From the IMG/VR virus record IMGVR_UViG_3300045988_125893: a stretch of 64,000 nt of DNA. One strand, written 5' to 3'. The DNA is from a virus. Below are positions 23,416-48,400 of the stretch, piece by piece (within the stretch, counting starts at the first letter, position 1; every line of letters begins with the position of its first letter). Made by a program: the position numbers and the translations under genes. Below the pieces are notes generated by a model. It was not told the DNA's origin, ran no database searches, and was given only the letters and a program-made list of their open reading frames with translations.

Positions 23416-24715
23416 AATATTAATAGATTTGGGGTTTGTACCTATGGTGGAAGGAGAAGGAAATACGTTGTTTAGAATGAACGACGTTGTGATGTCAGTA
23501 TCAGATCCTAACCAAACACCAGAGCAGTTGAAGAAGGAGGTTATGTCTTTAATAAAGAACAGAGACATAGCAGAAAGAGGCGGACAGGTTCCAGTAGTTG
23601 AAGAGCCGGCGCCTGAGCCAGAGCCGGTCCAGAAGGAGGAACCGGAAGCTCAGGCGGAGGAAGCCGCTCCTAACCCTGGAGAAGAAGATTCGAATCCGTT
23701 TACAGAAAATCAGGAAACATTAGAGCCGTTTTATATCTGTGATGAGTTAAAGAAGATTGAGACCCCCAAATTCGTAAGATTGACATTAGACGATAATCGT
23801 TTTTATGTAAGAAAGATGGATGATGGGACGGCTAAGATATATGCTTCGGTAACAACTTTAATCAAAGATGGGTATGTAGATGATAAGACAGCACTTCAGG
23901 AATGGAAGCAAGAGATAAAGATGCTTGGTCGCAATCCAGAAGAGGTAGCGCAGTATGAAGCCGATAAGGGAACGATCATGCACTACTTATACGGATTGTA
24001 CCTAACAGGTAGAGATATGGTCTTAAATCGAAGCTTTGTAGTTAAGACAGTGCAAGAAGGTAAGCTGAAGATATCGAAGAAAAATCTTGACCGATTCTTT
24101 AACAGCATAGATGATCTTGACGATATGATTGTCAGAGTTATGAAGTTTGCTAAATTTTGTTCGGAGTATAAGGTTAAGCCGATGATGATTGAAAGAATAT
24201 TGTCATTAGAAGATTATTTGGTAGCTACGCCGATAGATGCGATGGTTAAAATGACATTCAAATACAAAGAAGAAGGTTATTTTGGAGCCGTATATCAAAG
24301 GGCTACAGGGCAGTTCAAAAAAGGTGATCCGAAGAAGGAGGTAAGAGAAGTGGAGAAGGAAGAAGTGGTCATTCTTGACTTTAAATCGGGAGGAATATGG
24401 GAATCATATGCATTCCAATTGGAAGCTGAAAGAAGAATGGTTAAAGCATGGTATGGCATTGATGCACGTATTATGAACTTTTCTCCAAAAAGCACGAGCA
24501 GTAAAGGATATACGCTGAAAGAATGGACAGAAGACAGTGTGGCACTTGAAAAGGCGGACTGTGTGTTCCAACAAGGTATGTTGAATCACCTTAGAAAAGA
24601 TAAGAAGTTCAAAGTGAGAAAAGGAGTGTTGAATATCAATAAGCCGTACAATGAAGAAGATCATACGGTTGTATATGATATTGCAGAGGAAATGTCTAAA
24701 AGATTCGTAATATGA
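23387..24715 (+). CDS. hypothetical protein with acidic Pro/Glu-rich linker
   Basis: ORF 442 aa. Confidence 0.65.
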   Translation: MIGMIEEKIKILIDLGFVPMVEGEGNTLFRMNDVVMSVSDPNQTPEQLKKEVMSLIKNRDIAERGGQVPVVEEPAPEPEPVQKEEPEAQAEEAAPNPGEEDSNPFTENQETLEPFYICDELKKIETPKFVRLTLDDNRFYVRKMDDGTAKIYASVTTLIKDGYVDDKTALQEWKQEIKMLGRNPEEVAQYEADKGTIMHYLYGLYLTGRDMVLNRSFVVKTVQEGKLKISKKNLDRFFNSIDDLDDMIVRVMKFAKFCSEYKVKPMMIERILSLEDYLVATPIDAMVKMTFKYKEEGYFGAVYQRATGQFKKGDPKKEVREVEKEEVVILDFKSGGIWESYAFQLEAERRMVKAWYGIDARIMNFSPKSTSSKGYTLKEWTEDSVALEKADCVFQQGMLNHLRKDKKFKVRKGVLNINKPYNEEDHTVVYDIAEEMSKRFVI

Positions 24716-24945
24716 GCGATATTGTTATTCCTAAAGGAGATTATGTGGAAATCGTAAAACCGATACATATCAATCCTTTTGGTGATTATTTTATTAATAT
24801 CGAAAGGGGTTCGAGATTAAGATTATCGAAAGATTTGAGAATAGGAGATAAATATGCAATATGCGTACTTGCATCTCATAAGAAATATGGCAAGACCGTT
24901 GAAACAATAATGCCTATACTGGTCAGAAATACAAGAAGAGTATGA
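24712..24945 (+). CDS. hypothetical protein
   Basis: ORF 77 aa, ATGA overlap. Confidence 0.5.
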   Translation: MSDIVIPKGDYVEIVKPIHINPFGDYFINIERGSRLRLSKDLRIGDKYAICVLASHKKYGKTVETIMPILVRNTRRV

Positions 24946-25292
24946 AGAGAAAAATTAGAAAAACAGGAGAGATAATAGACGTAATCACCTTTAGTAGCTC
25001 AACTACAAGAAGCGACCATGACAGAATACAGTTCTATGGTAATAATGGGAGTGTGATAAGTGAGAGTTTAAATTTTTATCTCGATACCCTTCCTGTGGAT
25101 GATGAAAACAAAGATGTAGACTGGGAGCAACGTAGATTCGATCTTGTTAAGGCTTATTCTATTGAGTTTATTAAAGCACAAAATAGAAAAGGTGAAATAG
25201 ATTGCGGAGTATATGTACCGGATGTGGTGTCATGGTCTATAACTATAGCAGATAGAATCATAGAAGCAATGAGAGGAATTAAAAATGCTTGA
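24942..25292 (+). CDS. hypothetical protein
   Basis: ORF 116 aa. Confidence 0.55.
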   Translation: MKRKIRKTGEIIDVITFSSSTTRSDHDRIQFYGNNGSVISESLNFYLDTLPVDDENKDVDWEQRRFDLVKAYSIEFIKAQNRKGEIDCGVYVPDVVSWSITIADRIIEAMRGIKNA

Positions 25293-29477: not shown

Positions 29478-29675
29478 ATGGAAAAGAAGGAACTTAAAGT
29501 AGGAGAAACGTTTACTGCCGGATTTATAAGATTGAAATGTGTGGAAGGTGATACATGCGATGGGTGTATATTCGAAGATTACGATTCTTGTTCATGTACA
29601 GACATAATTATTGGTTCATGTGGACATATTGATAGACAAGATGGCAAGAATGTTATTTTTATTAAAGCTGATTAG
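29478..29675 (+). CDS. hypothetical Cys-containing small protein
   Basis: ORF 65 aa; AAGGAGG SD upstream. Confidence 0.5.
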   Translation: MEKKELKVGETFTAGFIRLKCVEGDTCDGCIFEDYDSCSCTDIIIGSCGHIDRQDGKNVIFIKAD

Positions 29676-29677
29676 GT

Positions 29678-30391
29678 ATGTACATCAATTTCAGACAACT
29701 TGCAGCATCAGACATGACTCCTAATGATCTTGCTAATCTTCTTGCCATAAGACAGAAGGATGCGGTTATGATCGAAGTCATGCCGGAAGAAGATGCTGGT
29801 AGATATATAGAACTTGGCCTGGTTGAGAAATTAAAATCAGGTGTGATGAGATTAACCAACAAAGGAACGTCTTTTGTGAATTATATAGAGACACCGGAAA
29901 TGACGGACGAGGTTCTGGAAACGTTGAAGATTATGATAGGAATGTACGAATCATATTCGAAAGACATAGGTGTCAGCAGAAAAGAAGCAGAATCCAGGTT
30001 ATGTTGGTTTATGGGTAATACTTCATTTAAGAAAGAGGTCATACTTCAGGTAACGGAGTCTTATATAGCAGAGTCAGGAGATTACACAATGAGCTTATGT
30101 AACTTCATATGGAAACCGCCTTCTCAAGCTTTTTCAGTCCATATGAACCTTAAAAACTCAAAGCTCTTTGACTTAATAGCTGAAAAATTTAAGATCGCTA
30201 CCGAGCCTTATTTGGAGCCTAAGAAGAATAAGGAAATGGATTGGTTGTTTGCTGTATCTAAATTGCCTACGCCTCCGGCTAAAGGCAATCCGGATTATTT
30301 GTTTACCGGAAGTTCGGAAACAGACAAAGAGCGATTGAAAAACATAAAAACGTATTTATTTAACAAAATTAGAAAGCAATGGAAAAAGTAA
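29678..30391 (+). CDS. hypothetical protein
   Basis: ORF 237 aa. Confidence 0.6.
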   Translation: MYINFRQLAASDMTPNDLANLLAIRQKDAVMIEVMPEEDAGRYIELGLVEKLKSGVMRLTNKGTSFVNYIETPEMTDEVLETLKIMIGMYESYSKDIGVSRKEAESRLCWFMGNTSFKKEVILQVTESYIAESGDYTMSLCNFIWKPPSQAFSVHMNLKNSKLFDLIAEKFKIATEPYLEPKKNKEMDWLFAVSKLPTPPAKGNPDYLFTGSSETDKERLKNIKTYLFNKIRKQWKK

Positions 30392-30732
30392 AAATCAGAG
30401 AGATAATAGAGGATATAGTTATTACTCATTTTCTCTATTCAGTAATAGAGCTGGTTCATGAAGAAGATGTATCATTTGAAGAGCTTGAATTAGATTCTCT
30501 TGATAAAATTGAACTTGTGGTGGAGGTAGAAAAAGAGTTTGGTATTCTTATTTATGATAACGAGATGGATAATATTAAATCCATTAAAGATATGACTGAT
30601 CTTGTTTACAAAATAAAAACAGAAGGACATGGGAAGTGGTATAATTTTATGCATGGCTTTGATAGCATCATTTGCTTTTATCATACAATTCTTACTATCG
30701 GTGTTAGGGTCCGATTTAGATACAGATATTGA
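30379..30732 (+). CDS. acyl carrier protein-like protein
   Basis: LELDSLDKIELVVEVEKEFGILIYDNE...SIKDMTDLVYKI aligns with AcpP [28 protein letters not shown]...TVQAAIDYI, including the DSL phosphopantetheine serine; C-terminal ~35 aa overlaps next gene. Confidence 0.7.
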   Translation: MEKVKIREIIEDIVITHFLYSVIELVHEEDVSFEELELDSLDKIELVVEVEKEFGILIYDNEMDNIKSIKDMTDLVYKIKTEGHGKWYNFMHGFDSIICFYHTILTIGVRVRFRYRY

Positions 30733-31123
30733 TATTGATGATGCTTCGGATTTAAGTATGTCCTTATCAGACATCATATCATTTAAAGGGATCACACATT
30801 TTATTCTTGGATATAGTTGGACCACATACTTTTCGGGCTCTCATTTGGTAGGGGTCATAATAGGGTCATTTTTCTTTATCGTTTTGTTTTATGTATATAA
30901 GTTGCTTCTTAAGCTAAAACAAGAAACAATATACGAATGTCCAGAAGATTTAAATGGTAGAGAAGTGGAAATAGTATTTAGATCAGGGAAAGATCATTAT
31001 ATGGTAAATATTACCAGAAATGGAAGACAGGAACAAATAAGAGTAAGATGCTTGTCTGGGAAAAATTACAAAAACGGTGACAAGGTGAATATAAAATACG
31101 AAGAAGGAGAATTAAGTATCTAA
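30629..31123 (+). CDS. NfeD-like membrane protein (YuaF/YqiJ-type partner of flotillin)
   Basis: two TM segments, acidic linker DLDTDIDIDD, C-terminal beta-barrel-like EVEIVFRSG..MVNITRNG..IRVRC..GDKVNIKYEEGELSI; directly upstream of SPFH gene; alternative start 30653. Confidence 0.7.
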   Translation: MGSGIILCMALIASFAFIIQFLLSVLGSDLDTDIDIDDASDLSMSLSDIISFKGITHFILGYSWTTYFSGSHLVGVIIGSFFFIVLFYVYKLLLKLKQETIYECPEDLNGREVEIVFRSGKDHYMVNITRNGRQEQIRVRCLSGKNYKNGDKVNIKYEEGELSI

Positions 31124-31157
31124 TTTTTTTATATCAACAAATTAAATTTTAAAAGTT

Positions 31158-32858
31158 ATGACAACAATTATGTACGTATCAGCAATTTTAGCTGTAGTGA
31201 TTATTTTGACGATCATCGGGATCTTATCAAGGTATCGTAGATGTAAGCCTAATCAGGTCTTGGTCGTTTATGGTAAGACAGGTGGGGAAAAGAAATCGGC
31301 GAAATTGTATCATGGTGGAGCGGCATTTGTATTGCCTATTATTCAAAGCTATGATATTTTGTCTATGGAACCTATGCAAATAGATTGCAGGCTTACCGGC
31401 GCTTTGTCATCTCAAAATATCAGAGTGGATGTACCTACTACTATTACGGTAGCGATCAGCACAAATCCTGAAATCATGCAGAATGCAGCAGAAAGACTTT
31501 TGGGGATGGATACTGAATCTACTGAAAATCTTATTACGGATATCGTTTATGGCCAAATGCGTTTGATCATTGCTGAAATGACGATTGAAAAACTTAATTC
31601 TGATAGGGATGAGTTTTTAGACAAAGCAAGAAAGAACATTGATAACGAGCTTAACAAGTTGGGTCTTTACCTTTTGAATATTAACATCAGCGACATCAGG
31701 GACGAAGCTGGCTATATCATGAATCTTGGCAAAGAAGCTGAAAGTAAGGCCCTGAACGAAGCACAGGCTAATATCGAAGAACAGGAAAAGCTGGGTGCTA
31801 TTAAAATTGCTGTACAACAGAAAGAAAAAGAAACGGCTGTAGCCAATACCCAAAAAGAACAAGAGATTCAAATTGCTTATACTGAAAAAGAAAAGGAAAC
31901 GGTAGTAGCTGAAACAAGGAAAGAAAAAGAAGTAGCTTTGGCTTTAACCGACAAAGAAAAACAGATTGGTGTAGCCCAAGCAGACAGAGATAGGGCTGCG
32001 GTTATTGCAAAGACTTTGGCTGACAAAGAATCGGCGATCGCAAGATCTAAGGCAGAACTTGAGGTAAACAAAGCTGAGGCTGAAAGAATGGAAGAAGTCG
32101 GGAAGAATAAGGCTGAGGCTGATAAACAAGCAGCTATAGCAATCCAAGATTCCGAAGCTCAGATCAAGAAAGCCGAAGCTGAGAAAAACGCATCTGTGGG
32201 TTATAACAATGCCCAGAAAGAGGTTGCTATATCAGAATCAGAATTACAGGTTATCAAAGCTCAATCAGAAAAGAAGGCCGGAGAAGAGAGAGTTAAGTCG
32301 GAAGCGGCTGTAAAAACGGCAAAAGAGCTTGCTGATAAAGAAGTGGAAGAGGCTAAGGCTGAGAAAGTTCAAGCTGCGCTTCGAGCTGAAAAGATTGTGC
32401 CGGCTGAAACCCAAAAGCAAGAAGCCATTCTGCAAGCTGATGCTGAAGCAGAAAAGATTAAACGCCGGGCTGCCGCTGAAGCAGCAGCTAATTTGGCAAA
32501 AGCAGAAGCCGAAGCAAAGGCTATTAAGATGAAGTTGGAAGCAGAAGCCGAAGGTAAGAAAAAGTCGTTGATGGCAGAAGCAGAGGGATTTAAGGCTATG
32601 GTGGAAGCAGCAGAATCGAATCCTCAGATTGCTATCCAGTATAAGATGGTTAATCAGTGGAAAGAAATAGCCGGAGAACAGGTCAAGGCATTTGAACACA
32701 TTAATCTTGGAAATATTACGGTATTTGATGGAGGTCAGAATAGTACCGGTAATTTCCTTAACAATGTTGTTAAAACCGTCGCTCCGGCATTGGGAGTAAT
32801 TGATCAGCTTCCTATTGCAGATACTTTAAAGAAGTTAAAAGGAGATGATAAGAAATAA
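31158..32858 (+). CDS. flotillin-like SPFH/band-7 protein (FloT/YqiK-like)
   Basis: N-terminal TM helix, SPFH core, long Ala/Glu/Lys-rich KEKE coiled-coil repeats; 566 aa. Confidence 0.85.
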   Translation: MTTIMYVSAILAVVIILTIIGILSRYRRCKPNQVLVVYGKTGGEKKSAKLYHGGAAFVLPIIQSYDILSMEPMQIDCRLTGALSSQNIRVDVPTTITVAISTNPEIMQNAAERLLGMDTESTENLITDIVYGQMRLIIAEMTIEKLNSDRDEFLDKARKNIDNELNKLGLYLLNINISDIRDEAGYIMNLGKEAESKALNEAQANIEEQEKLGAIKIAVQQKEKETAVANTQKEQEIQIAYTEKEKETVVAETRKEKEVALALTDKEKQIGVAQADRDRAAVIAKTLADKESAIARSKAELEVNKAEAERMEEVGKNKAEADKQAAIAIQDSEAQIKKAEAEKNASVGYNNAQKEVAISESELQVIKAQSEKKAGEERVKSEAAVKTAKELADKEVEEAKAEKVQAALRAEKIVPAETQKQEAILQADAEAEKIKRRAAAEAAANLAKAEAEAKAIKMKLEAEAEGKKKSLMAEAEGFKAMVEAAESNPQIAIQYKMVNQWKEIAGEQVKAFEHINLGNITVFDGGQNSTGNFLNNVVKTVAPALGVIDQLPIADTLKKLKGDDKK

Positions 32859-32865
32859 ATGTAAC

Positions 32866-32890
32866 GGCCCAAGGTTAAACTTGGGCCTAA
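32866..32890 (+). terminator. hairpin ggcccaag-gttaaa-cttgggcc after flotillin gene
   Basis: perfect 8-bp stem; weak T-tract. Confidence 0.5.
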
Positions 32891-33075
32891 TTGAAGAACT
32901 AAAAAGAGGGATTATAGATTTTATGCCAGCAGGAATAGTGATTTTTAGTGCTTCCTTATTTACGATATTTATAATATGGATTTCGGACAAGATTTAGAAC
33001 CAGAAGAACTAACTGAACATTATGATCAGTGTTATGATATTGATTTTGAAACAAAAGAAGTAGAAGAAGAGGAAT

Positions 33076-33384
33076 ATGACTGACGAGGAATTTGCATTAG
33101 ATAATAAAAATGATAAGATAATTATCAAGAAAAAGATATCTTACTTAAGTAAGGGTGATAAGGTGTGGATCGTGTCTTCGGATGGGTATCTGTTGCACAC
33201 AGACATTGTGCGTAGGGATCGTGGCAGATCTTATGTGGACATAGACGGAATACTGTATTGGAAACGAGGATTGGATGGCAAACATCGTAATCGTAGCAAC
33301 TATATGCAGTTTGCTATGACACCAGAAGACGGAAAGAAATATGTTACTTGTTATCCTGAAGGATTTAAAGATGATAGTTTATGA
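33076..33384 (+). CDS. hypothetical protein
   Basis: ORF 102 aa. Confidence 0.55.
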   Translation: MTDEEFALDNKNDKIIIKKKISYLSKGDKVWIVSSDGYLLHTDIVRRDRGRSYVDIDGILYWKRGLDGKHRNRSNYMQFAMTPEDGKKYVTCYPEGFKDDSL

Positions 33385-34400
33385 TAGTACCTAATACACA
33401 TCTGCTATATAAGGAATTTAATGGCATAAAACGTCTTGCTATATCTTATTCTCAGATAGATACGTTTTTAACATGCCCAATGAAATGGTATAAAACTTAT
33501 ATAGAAGGAAAGAGATCTACAGAAAAGCAGGAGGCTACATCTTATGGTACGGTCATTCACAAGACATTGGAATACTTTTTTAAAAACGGGAAACAGCCTT
33601 CTGGTAAAGATCTTGGGGAAGCTATAAGTTACTATGCTTACCAAGAAGACATACCTTGGCAATCGCCAGAGAATATGATGATAGCCATGAAGCAATCTGG
33701 AGAGCTTCTTGCTTGGATTGTGGATCTTTTTAAAAAAGACGGGAATAGGTTTATGATAGCTGATAGTGATCTTAATCCTTGTGAGAAACTTATAAGACAT
33801 GGTGATATAGTTGGAGTCGAAGAAGATTTTGTGCTGCCGTACCGCCTTCCTGAGCCAGTTGATATAAATGGGACCGTTCATACTCATGTGTATATAGTGG
33901 GGTCGGTGGACCTTCATCTGGCTATAAAAAGCAAAGGAGTGATCCATCATTATGTCATAGATTGGAAATCGGGGAATAAGGTTTTTGATTCTAAGAAGCT
34001 GGAAACAAATTTACAGCATCCTATATATTCGTTTTACATCTATAGAAGATATGGTGGGGTTCTACCAGATATGAACATCTATTTCTTTACCAGGACAAGG
34101 CAGTACCAAAAGGTTAAAGTAGATGAAGAACGTAAAATAAAATCTATAGAGATGCTAAATGACACTTTATCTAAAATGTATGATTTTGAAGATAATAGTG
34201 TAAAAACATTTCAAGCATACATCCAGGGAGCAGAAGGGGCCAGGTATAGCAAGCGGCGTGCCACCCTAAGCGAGCCTGTTCCGCAAAACAAGCTGCCCTG
34301 CCCGTCGGCACTGTGTTATTATTGCGATTTTGGATTACATAACAAAAATGAATGCCCTTTCTCTTCAGATTGGGATCCGTCTAAAAAGGTAAAACAATGA
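33381..34400 (+). CDS. Cas4-like / RecB-family PD-(D/E)XK exonuclease with Cys cluster
   Basis: N-terminal SYSQIDTFLTCPMKWY; VGSVDL, IDWKSG (D..K), QHPIY (QxxxY) motifs; C-terminal CPSALCYYC...ECPF matching the 1+3 Cys arrangement of Cas4-like nucleases. Confidence 0.65.
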   Translation: MIVPNTHLLYKEFNGIKRLAISYSQIDTFLTCPMKWYKTYIEGKRSTEKQEATSYGTVIHKTLEYFFKNGKQPSGKDLGEAISYYAYQEDIPWQSPENMMIAMKQSGELLAWIVDLFKKDGNRFMIADSDLNPCEKLIRHGDIVGVEEDFVLPYRLPEPVDINGTVHTHVYIVGSVDLHLAIKSKGVIHHYVIDWKSGNKVFDSKKLETNLQHPIYSFYIYRRYGGVLPDMNIYFFTRTRQYQKVKVDEERKIKSIEMLNDTLSKMYDFEDNSVKTFQAYIQGAEGARYSKRRATLSEPVPQNKLPCPSALCYYCDFGLHNKNECPFSSDWDPSKKVKQ

Positions 34401-34890: not shown

Positions 34891-35268
34891 ATGAAAAAAG
34901 AAGTTACAATCAAGGAGGACATGGCTGCGTTTTATAGAAATGCAGGAAAGGAACTATGGATTTATAACGGACTTTTTAGAAACAAGGTATTGTCTATAAA
35001 AAAAGATAAAGCCATTATCATGTGTGAAACTGATGCTGAATATTCTGTGCTGATAGAAGATAATCAGTTTATTGCCGTAGCAAAAAACATGGATTATGAT
35101 TACTGCTGCGCATTCACATTAGGTAATGCCGAGGCTTATGGAGATCGTATGGGTATATCGTGCAGTGTATGCTTGCTTGAGGATAACGAAGATAAAGCAA
35201 GAGAGATGCTAAAGGAGGCAATAATAGAACTTTCAAAAAACAGTAAAATAGATTGCGATGGGCTTTGA
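34891..35268 (+). CDS. hypothetical protein
   Basis: ORF 125 aa. Confidence 0.55.
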   Translation: MKKEVTIKEDMAAFYRNAGKELWIYNGLFRNKVLSIKKDKAIIMCETDAEYSVLIEDNQFIAVAKNMDYDYCCAFTLGNAEAYGDRMGISCSVCLLEDNEDKAREMLKEAIIELSKNSKIDCDGL

Positions 35269-37627
35269 ACTTAGACCTTACCAAAAAGAGGCAGTAGATG
35301 CCGGGCTTAAGTTTCTTACAGGAAGATCTAAGAAGCCTGGCATAATAGTAGCTCCATGCGGATGTGGAAAGAGCCTTCTGATATCCAAGATAGCACATGA
35401 AATAAATAGACCGACGTTAGTGTTACAGCCCTCAAAAGAGATTCTGGAGCAGAATTATGCAAAGGCTGTATCATTCGGTTCTAAACCTACCATATATTCT
35501 GCCTCATGTGGCGTAAAGGAATTATCGGCTATGACTTATGCTACACTTAAAAGCATAAAGAAAGACGTAGCAAGGTTGAAAGATATAGGGATAGATACGA
35601 TCCTGATAGATGAATGTTTTACTGGAGATGTGGAGATATTAACCGAAAAAGGGTTTGTTCAATTTAATAAATTAGAACAAAATGTAAGGGTAGCTCAATA
35701 TGATAAAGGATTTATTGATTTTGTGATGCCTATCAGATATATCAACAAGCCGCACGATGGTGACATTTGTTTACTTCATATTAAACATGGAATAGATCTT
35801 CCAGTGACAAAGAATCATGATTTCTTGTTTTATGATAAGAAATACGGTAAATGGTATAAACAGAAAATATCTGAAGCTTCTTTTAAATCTGGGAAATGCA
35901 TTCCGGTATCAGGGATATCACGTGTAGATAGCGAAGGCGATTCCTTATCTGACATGGAGAGGTTGTTTATAGCAACACAAGCAGATGGAAGTATTCATAA
36001 CAAAAACGAAAATGACACAATTATATCTTTCTCATTTTCAAAAGAAAGAAAAATAAAAAGGATTCATTATTTATGTAAGAATGCAAACGTTGAGATATGG
36101 GAAGTTAAAGGAAAAATAGAAAAAGAAGGAAATACGAAAAACAGAAGAAGGTTTATGGTAAGAATGCCAAAGTTTACAACAAAGGATATTCGAAATCATA
36201 TATCATTCCCAATGTCTTACGAAAAAGCAAGATCGGTAATAGAAGAGTGTTCTTTATGGGACGGCAGTATTATAGGGAATACGATGCTTTATTATTCATC
36301 GACCGATAAAACGCAGGTGGATTTTTATAATTCTGTAGCCACAATAGCTGGCCACGGATGTTATGTTTCTATTGAAAAGGATGGCAGAAAAGAAACATAT
36401 TCGGATGTTTATAGGCTTTTTATAACAAAAGACAAAAAACTAAGAGGCACTAACTCTATGTATAAACGATATGAAAAATACACCGGACAAGTTTATTGCG
36501 TAGAGGTTCCATCTGGATGTATAGTACTAAGATATAAAGGATATACATTTGTTTCTGGAAATTGTCATTCAGGATATTCTCCTGAAGAAGGTTCTGAGTT
36601 TATAGAGTTTATGAGCGAGTTTCCCGAGGCGAAGGTGCTGGGCTTCACCGCCACTCCCTGCCGCCTCCGAACCTACAGTTCCATGCTGGAAGGAAACTAC
36701 AGCAAGCTCAATATGCTGACGAAAGACGAGCATAATTTCTTCAAGAAAATAGTTCATGTGACTCAAATACAAGAATTAACTTCTCAAGGGTTTTGGTGTC
36801 CACTTAAGTACGAACGATGGTCTTTTGATGAATCGGCTCTGATGTTGAACAGCACCGGAGCTGAATACACCAACGAATCTATTAAAGAAAGTATTGTACG
36901 AAATGGCTTAAACAACTCTATCTACAAGCGCCTTCTTCAACTTATGAACGAACGTAAAGCCATTTTGGTTTGCATGGATTCTATTGAATCATGTAATAGA
37001 ATATCAGAGTTCATGAATGCCAAGATGGGAGCCATAACCGGTGTCGTAACATCGCTAACAACCAAAAAGAAAAGAGAGCAAATTATATCCGATTTCAAAG
37101 AAGGAAAGTTGAAGGTGGTTTTTAATTATTCAACGCTTGCTACCGGATTTGATTTTCCTGAACTTGATTGCGTGATGTTTGGTCGCCCAACATTCTCATA
37201 TTCAACATATTACCAAATATTAGGCCGCGCCGTCCGCATCCATCCTGACAAGAAAGAGGCGCTGATAGTTGATTGCTGCGACAACATGAGGCGTTTTGGT
37301 CGGATAGAAGACTTGACAATCGAACAATTCCCTTCTAAGGGCTGGTGTATGTTTGCCGGAGATCAACTTCTGTCCAATATAAGGATGGGTGATATTATTA
37401 CCAAAGACGAGATCCTTCGCCGGGCAGCCTCGCTTAAATCTGTGAATGGAGATGGTAGGAGAGAAGACGATCTTGACAGTATAATAATGTGGTTTGGAAA
37501 ATATGAAGGAATTAGATTCAAGGACATACCGGTGTCGTATTTTAGGTTCTTGGCTGAGAATATGGCAATAAAACCAGGAGACAGGAAAGAAAAGATTATC
37601 GAATATTATAATAGGATAAAGGCATGA
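35258..37627 (+). CDS. SF2 DExH-box helicase (ResIII/UvsW-like) interrupted by an intein
   Basis: LRPYQKEAV (Q motif), APCGCGKS (Walker A), DE|CH motif II restored after intein removal, TATP motif III, QILGRAVR motif VI. Confidence 0.85.
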   Translation: MGFELRPYQKEAVDAGLKFLTGRSKKPGIIVAPCGCGKSLLISKIAHEINRPTLVLQPSKEILEQNYAKAVSFGSKPTIYSASCGVKELSAMTYATLKSIKKDVARLKDIGIDTILIDECFTGDVEILTEKGFVQFNKLEQNVRVAQYDKGFIDFVMPIRYINKPHDGDICLLHIKHGIDLPVTKNHDFLFYDKKYGKWYKQKISEASFKSGKCIPVSGISRVDSEGDSLSDMERLFIATQADGSIHNKNENDTIISFSFSKERKIKRIHYLCKNANVEIWEVKGKIEKEGNTKNRRRFMVRMPKFTTKDIRNHISFPMSYEKARSVIEECSLWDGSIIGNTMLYYSSTDKTQVDFYNSVATIAGHGCYVSIEKDGRKETYSDVYRLFITKDKKLRGTNSMYKRYEKYTGQVYCVEVPSGCIVLRYKGYTFVSGNCHSGYSPEEGSEFIEFMSEFPEAKVLGFTATPCRLRTYSSMLEGNYSKLNMLTKDEHNFFKKIVHVTQIQELTSQGFWCPLKYERWSFDESALMLNSTGAEYTNESIKESIVRNGLNNSIYKRLLQLMNERKAILVCMDSIESCNRISEFMNAKMGAITGVVTSLTTKKKREQIISDFKEGKLKVVFNYSTLATGFDFPELDCVMFGRPTFSYSTYYQILGRAVRIHPDKKEALIVDCCDNMRRFGRIEDLTIEQFPSKGWCMFAGDQLLSNIRMGDIITKDEILRRAASLKSVNGDGRREDDLDSIIMWFGKYEGIRFKDIPVSYFRFLAENMAIKPGDRKEKIIEYYNRIKA
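35615..36562 (+). other. intein (316 aa) with LAGLIDADG-like homing endonuclease core, inserted in helicase motif II
   Basis: begins CFTGDVEILTEKG (block A), VTKNH (block B TxxH), LFIATQADGSIH (LAGLIDADG-like), ends FVSGN followed by +1 Cys (CHS). Confidence 0.7.
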
Positions 37628-37980
37628 ACAACAAGAGAAGAAAAAAAATATCGGATGTTATTAACAACGTAAATAAGTATAAAACAGATTTTGAATACAT
37701 CAAATCAAAGTTATCGGAGTTGAAGTACAACATAAATTCAGCCAAGGATGATGTTGATATGATTTTAGATGAAGAGACGGAGGCGAGAGATAATATACCG
37801 GAATCGTTACAAGACTCAGAAAAATATTGGGAATCAGATCAGGCTGTAACTGATATGGAGGAGGTGGTTGATGACATGGAAAGTATTATAAATGATATAG
37901 ATGATGTGATTTCAACCATAGATGAGAGCATTAAAACCATAAATGGTTCTATAAAAGTGAATTTAGTAGGAGTGATGTAA
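37624..37980 (+). CDS. hypothetical acidic protein
   Basis: ORF 118 aa, Asp/Glu-rich. Confidence 0.55.
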   Translation: MNNKRRKKISDVINNVNKYKTDFEYIKSKLSELKYNINSAKDDVDMILDEETEARDNIPESLQDSEKYWESDQAVTDMEEVVDDMESIINDIDDVISTIDESIKTINGSIKVNLVGVM

Positions 37981-38016
37981 GTCCATAAAAAAAACACTAT
38001 AAGTAAAATTTAACAT

Positions 38017-38082
38017 AATACGCTTGTATTAAAATTACACAATCTATATTTTTACGTCGTGTAATTTTAATACAAGCGTATT
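38017..38082. repeat. 24-bp perfect inverted repeat (aatacgcttgtattaaaattacac / gtgtaattttaatacaagcgtatt) with 18-nt spacer
   Basis: read directly; intergenic between 37980 and 38104; T-rich tail follows. Confidence 0.85.
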
Positions 38083-38103
38083 TTATTAAATAATTTAAAG
38101 GGT

Positions 38104-38841
38104 ATGATTTCTAAAGACAGGTTATTGTATGGAGTGGTAATCAGACAGGACATTAAAACTTCCTTTATGTCATTAACTGGATTACAAGAGGCATATACAA
38201 GAAAAAGAGTGGAGATGGGGTGGAATGATAAGAGAATAGAAAATATTCTTTCGAACAAGGAGAGCGCAGAAAGGATATTTTATATTCTTAAAAAACAGAA
38301 ATACATAAAAAGTGAAACCCTGAAAGAGTTTATGGATATAGTGGAAAACAACTCTTTGATAAAAGTAATGAAGTGGTATAATGCCTATAAGACTACAGGA
38401 AGAGGAACAAACAGAAATGTTATGTGTGATCCCTACATATGGGTATTAGTCGCTATAGAATTAAATCCTATGCTGTATGCAGAAGTCACTGGATGGTTAA
38501 ATGATAAACTTATTTTGGATAGAATAGAGATAGGGGATAAATACAATACTCTTTCAAGGTCTGTATCAAAATTTGAAGATGTTGATTACATAGAAATGGC
38601 TGATAAATTAAACTGGATTGTATTCAATAAACATAAATATGTTTTAGATAACAGGGCAACTCAAGAGCAGTTAAAAGAACTTGAAATGCTTCAATCCAAT
38701 CTTGCATTTTGTATAGAAATGGGAACCATATCTTCTTTTTCTGATTTAATAAACATGATGGGGACTATATATAAGAAAAAGTGGGGATCGGGAGCAGTAT
38801 CTTCTAAAAATATAAAATCTTCAAATAATGAAAACAAGTGA
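38104..38841 (+). CDS. hypothetical protein
   Basis: ORF 245 aa. Confidence 0.6.
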   Translation: MISKDRLLYGVVIRQDIKTSFMSLTGLQEAYTRKRVEMGWNDKRIENILSNKESAERIFYILKKQKYIKSETLKEFMDIVENNSLIKVMKWYNAYKTTGRGTNRNVMCDPYIWVLVAIELNPMLYAEVTGWLNDKLILDRIEIGDKYNTLSRSVSKFEDVDYIEMADKLNWIVFNKHKYVLDNRATQEQLKELEMLQSNLAFCIEMGTISSFSDLINMMGTIYKKKWGSGAVSSKNIKSSNNENK

Positions 38842-43019: not shown

Positions 43020-44080
43020 CAATCCTCAAAAATAGAAAAGAATTAGAAATTTAACAACAAAAAAAATAATTCGAAATCAGATATTCGATGAATTTAATTG
43101 ATTTTTAGTTGGTTATATGAATATATTTTTGTATTTTTATAATCCAATATAAAGATAAGAAGTATGTTCGATTTTAAATCACTTCCTGAATTTTCAAAAT
43201 TGTTTCCTGATGAGCAAGCGTGTATAACCTTTCTTGAAAAAGAAAGGTGGGGAAATCACGTTGTTTCTCCTTTTGATCCGGAATCTAAGGTGTATAAATG
43301 CAAAGGAAATAGGTACAAGTGTAAAAACACGGGTAAATACTTCAATGTTCGTACAGGAACGATTTTTGAAAATTCAAAGGTTTCATTACGAAAATGGATG
43401 CTGGCTTGTTATTTTGTTGTTGAAATGAAAAGAGGAGTATCATCTTTACAGTTATCTAAAATCGTGGGAGTAACACAGAAAACGGCTTGGTTTATGCTTC
43501 AACGTATTCACAATTGTTTTAGTATTGAAATAAAAGAGCCGTGTTTGAAAGGCGAGATTGAAGTGGATGAAACTTATATTGGTGGCAAAAACAAGAATAG
43601 ACATAGTAAGGATAAAGTTAAAGATGCACAGGGGAGATCTTTAAAAGATAAAACCCCTGTGTTTGGGACACTCCAACGAGAAGGATTTGTTGTCGCTTAT
43701 GTCGTTACAGACACAAAAGGTAAAACCTTACTTCCTTTGATATACAATATCGTTCATCCTAATTCTACCATATATTCTGACGAATGGTATGCGTATAACG
43801 GGATCGACAAAGAAAAGTTTGATCATCAAAAAGTATATCACAAAAAGGGAGCGTATGTAATAGGCAGAAGATCAACAAACACAATCGAAGGATATTGGAG
43901 CCATTTGAAGAAAATGATTTCTGGAACCCATTTCTGGGTGTCGAGAAAACATCTTCAAAGATATGTAGATTGCGAATCTTTCAGATATAACACGAAACAT
44001 CTATCGGAATCTGAAAGATTCGATGTATTTTTGCAGAATACCAAACGACGATTAAGGTATTCACAAATTAATTAATGCAA
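43020..44080 (+). mobile_element. IS1595-family element (boundaries not resolved; no terminal inverted repeats found by eye)
   Basis: transposase gene; A/T-rich upstream; next gene starts 4 nt after transposase stop, so right end may include a passenger. Confidence 0.35.
43164..44075 (+). CDS. IS1595-family (ISXO2-like) DDE transposase
   Basis: N-terminus FPDEQACITFLEKERWGNHVVSP...SKVSLRKWMLACYFVV...SSLQLSKIVGVTQKTAWFMLQRIH closely matches IS1595 transposase pattern; 303 aa. Confidence 0.85.
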   Translation: MFDFKSLPEFSKLFPDEQACITFLEKERWGNHVVSPFDPESKVYKCKGNRYKCKNTGKYFNVRTGTIFENSKVSLRKWMLACYFVVEMKRGVSSLQLSKIVGVTQKTAWFMLQRIHNCFSIEIKEPCLKGEIEVDETYIGGKNKNRHSKDKVKDAQGRSLKDKTPVFGTLQREGFVVAYVVTDTKGKTLLPLIYNIVHPNSTIYSDEWYAYNGIDKEKFDHQKVYHKKGAYVIGRRSTNTIEGYWSHLKKMISGTHFWVSRKHLQRYVDCESFRYNTKHLSESERFDVFLQNTKRRLRYSQIN

Positions 44081-45114
44081 TGGAAAAAATAGATAATAAA
44101 ATCAAGTACGAAGGAGAATTAGACCTCAATGGTTTAAAAATTCCTTGTTACGTTTTGGAGGATGGTAGAAGAGTCCTATCTACTACCGGAATGCAAAACG
44201 TTTTAGGACTTGACGATCCTAATGATAGATCGGGTACAAAATTAGTAAAAATACTATCCTCCAAAGCTATAAGCGACTGTATTCCAAATGGTTATTTATC
44301 GGTAAAAGATAAGTCATTTCCTTGTTTTAAAGGAAATAGAAGAATAATGGCTTATGAAGCTACAATATTACCTGATATTTGCGAAATCATGCTTAATGCC
44401 AGAGATTGTGCATTAAGCAAAAAAACATCTTTAGGTGTCAATCAACAAACAGTCATAAATAGATGTGATATAATTGTTAGAGCACTAGCGAAAGTTGGTA
44501 TCATAGCATTAGTGGATGAAGCCACAGGGTATCAAGAAGACAAAAATAGGGCGAAAGACGAACTACAGAAATTCCTAAATCAATTCCTTACAGAGGAAGC
44601 AAGTAAATGGGTGAAAACATTTAATGATAGCTTTTTTGAAATGATTTACAAGATGAGGGGATGGGATTGGGAAAATATACATAAGAGGCCCGCCGTTGTT
44701 GGTCAGTGGATCAATGATATTGTTTATAAAAGACTTGGACCGGGAGTTCTTGAAGAACTTAAGATAAGAAACCCTAAAAACGAGAAAGGGTATAAACCTA
44801 AAAAAGATCATCAATTCTTATCAGAGGATCTTGGAAAGCCTAAATTAAAAGAACATTTAGCTGCAATAGAGGCATTGGGAAGGGCTTCAGACTACAATTG
44901 GGATAAGTTCAAAGAAATGTTAGATAAGGCTTTACCAGTACAAGATAAGTTGTATGACGAGATAATGAGGGGAGAATGTGGAGATCCAAACATAGAAGAA
45001 GATATGAAGAGAATAGCTAAAGGCATATTTAGCTATAATCCCAAAACAGATCCTAACGACCCTCTTTTTGATAAAACCACCTCTAAAAAAGGTGGTAACG
45101 AAAAAGAATTTTAA
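44080..45114 (+). CDS. P63C-domain-like protein
   Basis: central region ...WVKTFNDSFFEMIYKMRGWDWEN..KRPAVVGQWINDIVYKRLGPGVLEELKIRNPKNEKGYKPKKDHQFLSEDLGKPKLKEHLAAIEALGRAS matches remembered P63C pattern; 344 aa. Confidence 0.6.
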   Translation: MEKIDNKIKYEGELDLNGLKIPCYVLEDGRRVLSTTGMQNVLGLDDPNDRSGTKLVKILSSKAISDCIPNGYLSVKDKSFPCFKGNRRIMAYEATILPDICEIMLNARDCALSKKTSLGVNQQTVINRCDIIVRALAKVGIIALVDEATGYQEDKNRAKDELQKFLNQFLTEEASKWVKTFNDSFFEMIYKMRGWDWENIHKRPAVVGQWINDIVYKRLGPGVLEELKIRNPKNEKGYKPKKDHQFLSEDLGKPKLKEHLAAIEALGRASDYNWDKFKEMLDKALPVQDKLYDEIMRGECGDPNIEEDMKRIAKGIFSYNPKTDPNDPLFDKTTSKKGGNEKEF

Positions 45115-45415: not shown

Positions 45416-48400
45416 CTACTTGTAGCTCACATCATCGTCTCCTTCTGAATCAGGAGTGGCACCGATGAAAAACATCATTGACTTGTTGTTCGTCTGCTGC
45501 CACCAGTTATAGGCACGTGCTACGTCTTCCGGCGTCTTAATGTTATACCATTGTTTGATAAACGTCTGTTTAGCGAGTTGTCTAAATAACTTAGACTCAC
45601 CTTTATATGTACCAGATGTTACTTTATCAAGTGAGTAGTTCCTGAGATCGGTGAGATCCTTCAGTTTCCGTCCCATGACAAATGGGTCATTAATGATATC
45701 CACCACATTAAGCTCCATAATAAACGGCATCTGTGAAGCTATTTCATTTATGGTTCTAAATCCTACATAAGATCCGAATTGAGTAAGCCAGCTTTCCTCG
45801 TTTTCATCATCATCACGCCATCCGGCAAGAAGCATAGACACGGCCTGCATGATGAGGAACGTGCCGGCATAAACACTGAGGCGTTTAAGATTAGTCTTTT
45901 CCACCTCACCCATCTTATCTTTATTTTCGTTCCAGGCATCTATGATATTTTTCATACCAGGCTCGGAAGCTAAGCTAAATGTTTTAGCTATCATATTCTT
46001 TAACGTAATTGACAGCCCTTCCTCTTCTTGCATTGTCTGGAAATTGAATCCCCTTCTTTTCCACAGACGTTGAGCCGCCAGCACCAGCCATCCTCGGTGG
46101 GCAGTCATGAACCTGGCTATCCAGTTACGTGATGCGGCGGTTCGGTTTTCTTCATTCAAAGATCCGTTACATATCTGTGACAAGCTACGAACCTGATTAC
46201 GGGTTATAGCCATCTGGGTTTCAACTTCCTCAACAGTAACACCCGATCCTGGTTTCACAACCACCTTGCCGTCTACAACATCTACCATACTCCATAAAGT
46301 ACGATCTCTTAATGCATCCCATTCTCTTTTTATAGTGCTCTGTTCTTTATTGCGTTCTTTTTCCATCTTGAAATCCTGGAACGTGTAGAACCGACCTTTG
46401 TAATAACGAACGTTATCCATCGTAGCGATCATAACCTGCGGATCAAGAGGGTAGTTCATGATTTCCATAAAAGCATACATCGGTGAACGCATTAAGGTCC
46501 TGGCCGCCCTATTATATCCGGCACCATACATACGATTTCGGATATTGAATATCCCCATTCTCTCACCTATGACATATAATTTGCTTTTTCTATCTATGTC
46601 TCCGGTTTCTGCTATACAAGATGGCGCAAGACGTGAAAACTCAGCCGATGCGTATTTAAGGGAATCTTTGCTTATATATTGTCCTACGGCAGATTCCATG
46701 ATGAGGTTAATATGACCTGTCAGAGCGCCGGTAGCTGCCACAAACGGGGACAGCGCTAAGTTCATGACCGACATAAACCTTTCAACGGCCATCATAATTC
46801 TTGTAAGATCTATCGTGTATCCACCGATGTTAACCGTAAGTTTCTTGGTGTTCATCCTAATGCCATAATAATGGTCATTAAAGAAGTCTCTAAACATCTG
46901 GTATGCTTGAGTTGCCTCAGCTTTCTTACCGCCTTCAAATTGCTTATTCAGTAACATCTGCTCCAGTCCTTGGGCAAGCTCTATAGACTTCTGCTTTTCG
47001 TTGTATAACGATGATTGCATCATAAGCATCGAATAAGAATAACCAAAATCATGAGATACGTCATCTTGGTTCTCTAATTCATATATGTAGTATTTAGGTA
47101 TAGACCTAATCCTATCTTCTGGATCATATACTTCCCCTTGTCTGGTTTTACCGTATAGAGAATCGTCTACTCTGTCCAGACAGAGATCTGATACAAAATT
47201 ACGAACCGTATTTTTGAAGTTGATACCCAATCCCTCCATACGTTCTATATCTTGTTTGGATATCTGTGGAATAGCATACAAATTGGGGCTCTGCTCTTTG
47301 TATAAGGAAAGGGATTGTCTTTTTATTTCCTTAAGTTTTTGAATCATATTCCATTGCTCTACGTTTTTAGTAGCAATCTCATTACCATCAGCATCATATC
47401 TAATGCCGAAGTCATTGAAATACGATTCATCACGATACAGGCTCTTCTTGGGCATACGATAACCATACCCATGATCTTTTACATAATCTGGGTTACGACC
47501 GCTATTTTCAGCTTCAGATTCAGCCACCCACGCTCTTGCAGGGTCGAAAGATAGGTACGATATATTCATACCATAATCTTGTGTGGATGTCCCGTTCTGT
47601 ACGTCTTTAACCATCTGTGCCACGTCTATCTCACCTCGACCTATTTTACCAAGCATAGCCGCATATCCGGTAGGAGCCATGCGTTTGTAATATGAAAAGA
47701 CTTGACTTCTGGCAAATTCATTAACAATAGCATTAGCCTCTTCTATACCTGATTCTCTTGTGTTATTTAAAAACAAGCTGGCCATCTTAGTATTGACAGC
47801 ATTCCTAAAATCTCTACCGTCTAATTCTTTGTTTATTCCAAGCTTTTCTGACAAGTAGTTGGTTTCAGATACAGTAAACAAATATCGGTTATCAGCAGCC
47901 TTAAATAGTTTATCCCTTAAGGCTTGAATCCTTTTTGCTTTCTTTGCCGTAGTATGACGTTGCACAAACTTCCATTCCACTTCCTTGGAGTCAGCAAGAG
48001 CATTTAAATAAGATTGATTGACTTCGTTTTCAGCCTTACTGCTTTTAGTAAGGTATTTATCAATATCTTCAAGACCCACCATCTTAGCATAATCTATTAA
48101 AATAGCGTAATCGGTTTCAATAGCTTCAGATGCAGCCCTAAAAGCATCTCTTTCAGATGAGGTAAATGTCGCTTCATTGATTTCTCCGATGTCAGCCACA
48201 TCGCGGTTATTCCCAATTATTTCCTTGATGATAGCCCTGTTTTTTTCTATATCTTTCACAATAGCTTCTACGTCTGTCGCATCTCTATCACTTGTCGTAG
48301 AATTAATGATATCATGCGCCATTTTAAGATACGAAGCCTTGTTGTTTGATTCGGTGCGTGCCGACTGATCTGACTCTATATCATTCCAAAACTGATCATT

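Follow-up and report, generated by a model that had tools for sequence, protein, structure and literature searches.

What is a flotillin operon of bacterial type doing in a bacteriophage, and does the acyl carrier protein (ACP) gene that precedes it belong to it? The question is raised by a 64,000-nucleotide (nt) stretch of viral DNA (IMG/VR record IMGVR_UViG_3300045988_125893; the window hereafter means this whole stretch), in which an earlier note, made from the sequence alone, had picked out three consecutive + strand genes for an ACP-like protein, an NfeD-like membrane protein, and a flotillin. All three open reading frames (ORFs) are indeed present on the + strand: 30379..30732 for the ACP (117 amino acids, aa), 30629..31123 for the NfeD-like protein (164 aa), and 31158..32858 for the flotillin (566 aa). 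The last two form a real, uncommon auxiliary membrane-scaffold cassette in a phage, and the reading we favour as probable is that this cassette is host-derived and lies beside a separate ACP of the phage backbone; a functional unit of all three genes is not established. The genes in question are as follows:

30379..30639, + strand: stand-alone ACP in its usual extent of 86 aa (PF00550, PHROG 5934), with a putative phosphopantetheine site at Ser40 in ELDSLD.
30629..31123, + strand: NfeD-like flotillin partner, 164 aa, with a first transmembrane (TM) segment, an acidic DxDxDxD loop, an SFKGxxHF helix, a second TM segment, and a predicted C-terminal OB barrel that begins at an L-x-G-R motif.
31158..32858, + strand: flotillin, 566 aa, with an N-terminal hydrophobic anchor, an SPFH/Band_7 domain, an A/E/K-rich coiled coil, and a Flot C-terminal domain.

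The identity of the flotillin is straightforward. It exceeds the gathering cutoffs of both PF01145 Band_7 (90 bits; cutoff 23.6) and PF15975 Flot (38.3 bits; cutoff 27), which bears out its earlier assignment to the SPFH/flotillin group, and it has a single hydrophobic segment centred on residues 10-19. The long coiled coil that had been read from its sequence is likewise there, with 53 A, 41 E, and 35 K among the 235 residues from 216 to 450. Orthology with FloT was considered and rejected, the protein scoring 148.5 bits against a cutoff of 700 for NCBIfam NF058507, and no PHROG family matches it. Among phage relatives the flotillin ranges from 408 to 659 aa in length, and the DNA for the coiled coil (31803-32507) holds a 27-nt unit repeated 2.1 times in tandem at 31882-31937, which suggests that coiled-coil length is shaped by repeat-driven expansion and contraction.

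The origin of the pair is best seen in bacterial chromosomes. A scan of one genome per species with a 10-member NfeD-like alignment found the partner family in chromosomes of Bacteroides, Phocaeicola, Parabacteroides, and Prevotella-group bacteria and gave 80 Bacteroidales loci. Flotillin is the next gene in 78 of these, lying 10-30 nt downstream in most; of the two loci with no flotillin match, one is on a 1.2-kb contig and the other ends ~650 bp past the gene. In all but 3 of the 78, identity between this flotillin and that of the phage is 63-66% along the whole protein, and even among more distant metagenomic members of the family, a Band_7 gene comes next in three cases out of three. In P. 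vulgatus ATCC 8482, the pair sits in the core chromosome between ybeY and mnmG, NfeD-like gene first, and its flotillin has the same length (566 aa) and the same domain architecture as that of the phage. Because of this identity of 63-66% between phage and host flotillins, the NfeD-like and flotillin genes are taken to be a host-derived cassette. The likeness to the cellular yuaF-floT and yqiJK operons that had been pointed out earlier therefore has a firm basis, the pair being homologous to a two-gene operon of Bacteroides, Phocaeicola, and Parabacteroides.

Global alignments between phage and host give 33-43% identity for the partner and 66-70% for the flotillin, and those between host genera give 42-50% and 71-74%, respectively. 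Since the host genera show the same contrast between flotillin and partner, there is no special acceleration in the phage partner. An attempt to name the donor genus failed: the phage proteins are equidistant from the Bacteroides, Phocaeicola, Parabacteroides, and Prevotella copies, and thus either the capture is old or the donor is unsampled. Within ±4 kb of the 80 chromosomal loci, blastp found no ACP, and Pfam searches of the genes neighbouring the P. vulgatus pair (one locus) found none either. As a separate observation, some Phocaeicola/Bacteroidaceae genomes carry two paralogous cassettes, as seen at L096 and L098 (from the same Bacteroidaceae metagenome-assembled genome) and at L101 (P. 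vulgatus). In one, the partner has 165 aa and the flotillin 544 aa; in the other, the lengths are 177 and 566 aa, respectively. Between the two types, identity is only ~71-74% for the flotillin and 42-50% for the partner.

The middle gene is the hardest of the three to name. Kyte-Doolittle hydropathy shows two strong TM segments, and the AlphaFold model (predicted local distance difference test score, pLDDT, 73; barrel 80-88) has helices at the N terminus, an acidic loop that is disordered, and a beta-barrel at the C terminus, together with an extra, weaker third helix. The best structural matches of the modelled OB barrel are NfeD structures. At the level of sequence, however, membership of PF01957 had to be rejected: the protein does not match PF01957 NfeD at E<=1, nor any family in Pfam, PHROGs, NCBIfam, or PADLOC. 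Searching 1.84 billion representatives with a profile brought together a family of 435 proteins, mostly of 155-190 aa, and only 2 of 78 full-length members match PF01957 (best 6e-5). In the PDB, the family profile best matches B. subtilis YuaF in its soluble domain (2k14; E=0.05, across the whole C-terminal domain), and a viral homologue in BFVD, 36% identical, bears the name 'NfeD-like C-terminal domain-containing protein'. The YqiJ family (PF21001 YqiJ_N plus PF07290 YqiJ_OB) was also tried and rejected, as E. coli YqiJ matches both profiles and the phage protein neither; hhalign of the 78-member family against YqiJ gave a collinear alignment with a probability of 1% and an E value of 0.05. 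The middle gene is therefore NfeD-like by fold, remote sequence links, and conserved context, and not a demonstrated member of PF01957; of its earlier identification, the two TM segments and the flotillin context stand, the barrel is predicted by the model, and the expected profile match does not appear. Residues 27-48, between the first TM segment and the SFKGxxHF helix, form a D-x-D-x-D-x-D loop in which D31, D33, and D35 are invariant in phage and Bacteroidales proteins. This loop, disordered in the model, might bind cations.

A cassette so plainly of host derivation, missing from some phage genomes and interrupted by nonsense codons in others, could in principle be a host contaminant, a misassembly, or a decaying passenger with no function. 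The genomic setting argues otherwise. Positions 29600-33400 of the window (3.8 kb) are 88.9% identical at the nucleotide level to csAssE-Sib, a complete 151-kb crAss-like phage genome from the human gut. Among the products of csAssE-Sib are the terminase, portal, capsid, 'ring', and 'muzzle' proteins usual in crAss-like phages, and its copies of the trio are annotated as 'acyl carrier protein', 'transmembrane protein', and 'flotillin family protein'. When IMG/VR was scanned for relatives of the flotillin, 166 stretches came up; the best 80 of these loci, which were compared, are at least 96% identical, share a gene order running from DnaB to a PD-(D/E)XK nuclease, and in many cases lie on contigs of 77-154 kb. 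The insertion point and flanks are thus the same in the best 80 of 166 IMG/VR loci and in the complete GenBank phage, and a clade (that of L082) with a backbone of only ~72% nucleotide identity also retains the whole trio at this point. The same flanks and gene order in viral contigs exclude a contaminant explanation, which the earlier note had named as grounds for refutation, and recent contamination is further contradicted by the distance from every sampled host copy: identity is only 63-66% for the flotillin and 33-43% for the partner. The source of the window is a common ~150-kb crAss-like phage of the human gut, and Bacteroides, Phocaeicola, and Parabacteroides are its likely hosts.

Selection within the phage population points the same way. 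The ratio of nonsynonymous to synonymous substitution rates (dN/dS), a pooled pairwise estimate over phage relatives that ignores phylogenetic non-independence, is 0.035 for the whole flotillin, 0.015 for its SPFH and C-terminal domains, and 0.065 for the NfeD-like gene, as compared with 0.048 for the 237-aa gene upstream of the trio and 0.36 for the ACP. The cassette is under strong purifying selection within the phage lineage, and its NfeD-like gene is an intact 164-aa ORF in all 82 genomes. Values of 0.035-0.065 across the phage population indicate selection inside the phage lineage itself, and we consider contamination, misassembly, or functionless decay an extremely improbable account of the locus. 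The ACP, on the other hand, evolves ~5-10 times faster than its neighbours, a contrast that is large despite the pooled nature of the estimate.

Although under selection, the cassette is not universal. Four relatives (L173-L176) match the window at 91-93% identity on either flank and possess neither the NfeD-like gene nor the flotillin gene. When the window is compared with them by blastn, homology on the left stops at 30413-30609 and restarts on the right at 32958-32968, which delimits the following feature:

~30560..32960: present/absent module comprising the 3' part of the ACP gene, the NfeD-like and flotillin genes, and the start of a small TM ORF; ~155 bp stand in its place.

The left-hand boundary falls inside the ACP gene, and the ACP varies together with the cassette: an allele with the attachment serine accompanies the cassette at 83 loci, and an allele with no such serine is found at the 4 loci lacking it. 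The ACP and cassette genes are adjacent, however, and this co-variation may reflect a single recombination event. Three further genomes have a late in-frame TAG in the flotillin gene, at position 7498 in L029 and at position 7468 in L047 and L048 (codon ~490-500), where the window has a Gln codon. These may be ordinary nonsense mutations. Amber-to-Gln recoding occurs in some crAss-like phages, and the TAG codons of L029, L047, and L048 may alternatively be instances of it.

The ACP itself is genuine, as had been claimed. It scores 33.2 bits against PF00550 PP-binding (gathering cutoff 20.8) over residues 27-76 and matches PHROG 5934 'acyl carrier protein' at 1.7e-13; the exact 86-aa form, P0310, is recorded on 36 contigs and scores 34.7 bits against PF00550, and the L082 homologue scores 32.7 bits. 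Its best scores against the NCBIfam AcpP equivalogs (TIGR00517 / PRK00982) are 35.8-36.4 bits, far under cutoffs of 70-106, and it is therefore a divergent ACP rather than an AcpP orthologue. The protein is acidic, with 23 D+E against 10 K+R. The serine of the DSL motif had been singled out as the candidate site of phosphopantetheinylation, and its conservation holds in part: DS[LIV]D is kept in the window and in every full-length ACP among 81 close relatives, and the L082 protein is very canonical (DDLGLDSLDEV), but in the L173-L176 allele the serine is replaced by Y/F (FDYLD, FDYFD, or FDFFK), a departure of the kind that the earlier note had listed as refuting its claim. That allele is 39-45% identical to the ACP of the window and, at 18-19 bits, falls below the PF00550 cutoff. 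In 5 of the 81 genomes, the ACP gene is broken, by frameshifts in L036 and L051, by TAA in L059 and L074, and by TGA in L071, and all five keep the NfeD-like and flotillin cassette.

Much had been made of an overlap of about 100 nt between the ACP and nfeD genes. The overlap truly exists in this sequence, where it measures 104 nt (30629-30732), but it is not a means of coupling the two genes, for it arises from a rare single-base loss of a stop codon. Two features describe it:

30637..30639, + strand: TGG codon (ACP codon 87), a TGA stop in 80 of 81 related loci.
30640..30732, + strand: tail that read-through adds to the ACP ORF, with 30 sense codons and a stop at 30730-30732, in an alternative frame of the 5' end of the NfeD-like gene.

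The ACP frame accordingly does not reach 30732 in related phages: in 80 of 81 relatives, the TGA leaves an ACP of 83-86 aa and an overlap of 11 nt. The csAssE-Sib protein, for instance, ends in EGYGK before its TGA, and the next gene starts within ATGGGAAGTGA, again an overlap of 11 nt. The TGG is common only to the window and to L054, and, since these belong to different haplotypes, it arose twice; the same base change from TGA to TGG also replaces D by G at the fourth residue (residue 4) of the NfeD-like protein. The read-through frame is open for 24 codons in 79 relatives and for 30 codons in 3, and the peptide it would encode is not conserved, so the tail is probably not a functional extension. 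What lengthens the ACP ORF is the private loss of a stop codon (or a variant introduced by sequencing), not a conserved coupling device. Two other explanations were tried and rejected. Stop-codon recoding does not account for the long ORF or for the in-frame stops, as the lesions mix TAA, TGA, and frameshifts, the TGA is retained at the end of the ACP in 80 of 81 loci, and read-through closes after 24-30 codons. Dual coding in the overlap also finds no support: the NfeD-like gene has a synonymous diversity of 0.089 over its first 102 nt, as against 0.088-0.107 in upstream genes, and this agreement indicates a regional gradient rather than dual coding.

Might the three genes nonetheless act as one, as the earlier note had suggested? 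A phosphopantetheinylated ACP could carry acyl groups, or dock host lipid enzymes, at flotillin microdomains and so remodel lipids. The trio is packed tightly and in one direction (the first two genes usually overlap by 11 nt, and 34 nt separate the last two), it has been kept in both the window clade and the L082 clade, and the ACP allele has been swapped along with the cassette in phages that are otherwise 91-93% identical; an allele lacking both the cassette and the attachment serine would suit a carrier role that depends on the cassette. Against this, the host operons have the pair with no ACP, and the co-variation of serine and cassette amounts to essentially one recombination event between neighbouring genes. 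Constraint on the ACP is weak (0.36 as against 0.035-0.065), and 5 of 81 genomes with an intact cassette have a broken ACP; an obligate three-gene unit is accordingly doubtful. The long overlap offered as a sign of coupling is a private mutation. Finally, no phosphopantetheinyl transferase (PPTase), acyltransferase, Fab, or AMP-binding/acyl-ACP synthetase domain was found among the 81 + strand ORFs of the window, and the annotation of csAssE-Sib, the complete relative, likewise lists no PPTase or lipid enzyme, so that the proposed role in lipid metabolism is unsupported. We therefore judge a three-gene functional module unlikely, in this form and in general, and the adjacency of ACP and cassette is poor evidence of shared function. 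Similarly unlikely is a more specific version, in which the serine-bearing ACP, the NfeD-like protein, and the flotillin would be an exchangeable module whose holo-ACP delivers acyl chains to, or recruits host lipid enzymes at, flotillin platforms in the Bacteroides inner membrane. Loss of the cassette would then entail loss of the prosthetic-group serine, as in the L173-L176 allele. If true, such a module would constitute a previously undescribed link between an ACP and an SPFH scaffold in a very abundant group of human-gut phages.

The favoured account, a host-derived two-gene cassette beside a separate ACP, suggests the following course of events. The cassette would consist of an NfeD2-type partner, with two TM anchors and a cytoplasmic OB barrel, and an SPFH2-type flotillin, and would be transcribed as part of a long co-directional block of replication genes. 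The flotillin is predicted to enter the inner membrane through its N-terminal hydrophobic segment, to oligomerise through the coiled-coil and Flot regions, and to bind the OB domain of its partner, as in cellular flotillin-NfeD pairs. Phage assemblies might then add to, or remodel, the host's own flotillin assemblies and thereby stabilise membrane proteins or membrane integrity in a stressed, energy-drained infected cell until progeny are made; alternatively, they might serve as a scaffold for a membrane-associated phage process or help to exclude competing phages. The ACP, for its part, would be an acidic orphan ACP of the kind found in large phages and belong to the phage backbone. As no phage PPTase (PF01648) was found, host AcpS would be needed for conversion to holo-ACP.

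Several points weigh against this account. The co-variation of the serine with the cassette could mean that ACP and cassette have a functional tie despite everything. In nature, phages can dispense with the cassette, given four close relatives that lack it and three with a premature TAG in the flotillin. The likely hosts already encode the same pair, so that the advantage of a phage copy is not obvious, and a benefit to the phage is something that we infer purely from the genes.

A similar flotillin in the host also invites the idea of a conflict tool, by which the phage protein would co-assemble with or displace the host flotillin and so block superinfection, abortive-infection effectors, or flotillin-dependent processes. 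The similarity extends over the SPFH and C-terminal oligomerisation regions, and its high level makes mixed phage/host oligomers plausible. Presence/absence polymorphism and a coiled-coil length range of 408-659 aa are moreover typical of accessory conflict genes, and there is a precedent in the SPFH pair HflK/C, which controls FtsH and hence the stability of lambda CII, and which illustrates that SPFH proteins can affect phage outcomes. However, purifying selection is very strong, with no sign of diversification in the SPFH and C-terminal domains (dN/dS 0.015), and none of the four proteins searched matches a PADLOC defence model, for which reason membership of a defence system was rejected. 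A role in conflict seems to us rather unlikely.

How does the two-gene cassette compare with systems already described? Its nearest counterpart is the chromosomal operon of Bacteroidales, with which it shares the two genes, their order, the short spacer of ~20-30 nt, a partner built from TM segments, acidic loop, SFKGxxHF helix, and predicted OB barrel, and comparable sizes (flotillin 566 aa, partner 164-177 aa). The phage copy differs in lying within a block of replication genes, with an ACP upstream and a small TM ORF downstream. Hinderhofer et al. 2009 (PMC2636767) described yuaF-yuaG and yqiJ-yqiK as operons of an SPFH2-NfeD2 type, to which the Bacteroidales pair also belongs, and yuaG of B. 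subtilis is a member of the stress-induced sigma-W regulon (PMC2636767). As in yuaF-floT and yqiJ-yqiK, the phage gene for a small membrane protein, here with a modelled C-terminal beta-barrel, immediately precedes that for a flotillin of ~500-570 aa, and the phage flotillin aligns end to end with E. coli YqiK (25% identity, E 8e-20). The phage pair differs in that the partner matches none of the Pfam profiles NfeD, YqiJ_N, and YqiJ_OB and that the flotillin reaches 148 of the 700 bits demanded for FloT. The mechanistic model for the phage pair is borrowed from the flotillin and NfeD pair of S. aureus: FloA-NfeD is proposed to hold and stabilise unfolded membrane proteins under stress in an ATP-independent manner (Ukleja et al. 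2024, PMC11222466). The S. aureus pair is an experimentally tested cellular system of a Gram-positive bacterium, whereas the phage pair is known from its genes alone.

Flotillin-like genes have been noticed in phages before. SPFH/Band 7 genes have been listed in the T4-like phages 44RR, Aeh1, and RB43 since 2006 (PMC1524935), the Vi01-like phage Sajous1 encodes an SPFH lipoprotein and, at another locus, a putative ACP (PMC10892097), and Vibrio phage KIT04 has an annotated 'flotillin family protein'. In the records examined for these five phages, no recognised NfeD-type partner adjoins the SPFH gene. True flotillin homologues occur in 9 of 50,697 GenBank phage records, and 2 of those 9 have the NfeD-like partner. 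ACP-like genes occur alone in 99 GenBank phage records; the orphan ACPs of PHROG 5934, such as those of Vibrio ICP1, Prochlorococcus P-HM2, Yersinia fHe-Yen9, and Achromobacter Motura, are small and acidic and lack an obvious synthase or PPTase. By comparison, only in this crAss-like lineage, among the records examined, does an ACP lie directly upstream of NfeD-like and flotillin genes, and here an allele lacking the serine also circulates. A search of the available literature returned no paper pairing 'crAss-like' with 'flotillin'; one 2026 preprint, on a Segatella Crassvirales genus, mentions SPFH once.

The cassette is best regarded as a host-derived auxiliary gene set and a good experimental handle, rather than as a system of a new class. 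Pairs of flotillin and NfeD are common across bacteria, yet poorly understood. A complete pair under selection in a phage whose hosts bear the operon provides a natural gain-of-function setting for a scaffold role under stress, in which the phage variants lacking the cassette serve as natural controls, and it extends the list of host-like auxiliary genes in crAss-like phages by a set for membrane homeostasis. For annotation, the 'transmembrane protein' of the GenBank record can be renamed an NfeD-like flotillin partner, and the 117-aa ACP ORF is better annotated as an 86-aa protein whose stop codon is lost through a private mutation.

On either side of the trio lie two further genes:

29678..30391, + strand: 237-aa gene, backbone context outside the cassette, whose 3' end overlaps the ACP start by 13 nt.
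32845..32997, + strand: 50-aa TM ORF that overlaps the flotillin stop, hypothetical in csAssE-Sib.

The upstream 237-aa protein is 98% identical in the relatives lacking the cassette and has no family match in Pfam, PHROGs, or PADLOC. Its candidacy as a divergent Sfp-type PPTase, on account of an 'SRKEAESR' motif, is unsupported, there being no Pfam match, and a single-sequence AF2 model (pLDDT 35) is unusable. The right-hand boundary of the variable module lies within the 50-aa TM ORF, in keeping with the point at which homology to the cassette-less relatives restarts. The trio sits in a run of + strand ORFs that reaches ~45.1 kb. Promoter-like sites show no excess over shuffled expectation in a sigma-70 scan, which may not apply to Bacteroidales or crAss-like promoters, and the same scan found no + strand terminator-like site in the gene run from DnaB (27721) to 35500. 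Between 45200 and 45420, the long ORFs flip from the + to the − strand, beginning with a 2138-aa ORF at 45416-51832, and the sign of the GC skew changes there.

Elsewhere in the window, segments 24713-25264 (~550 bp) and 37980-38827 (~850 bp) have no blastn match in L001, L002 (where covered), L173, L174, or L176 and look like further small variable modules of the early-gene block; the second holds a 245-aa ORF (38104-38841) with no Pfam match. The ResIII/Helicase_C helicase at 35258-37627 is 789 aa long in the window and 472-473 aa in several relatives. The difference is due to an insertion (~35615-36562) of 316 aa that starts with CFTGDVEIL and ends with FVSGN directly before CHSG, and thus splits the helicase DE|CH motif in the fashion of an intein, although Pfam detects no intein domain in it at E<=0.01. 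It is absent from L001, L002, L174, and L176 and present in L173 and, as far as the contig end, in L175. Lastly, a gene for an IS1595-family transposase (DDE_Tnp_IS1595, 3e-42, plus a zinc ribbon) adjoins one for a P63C-domain protein at 43164-44075 and 44080-45114; csAssE-Sib has TnpB/IS605-type genes elsewhere instead of the IS1595-family transposase.

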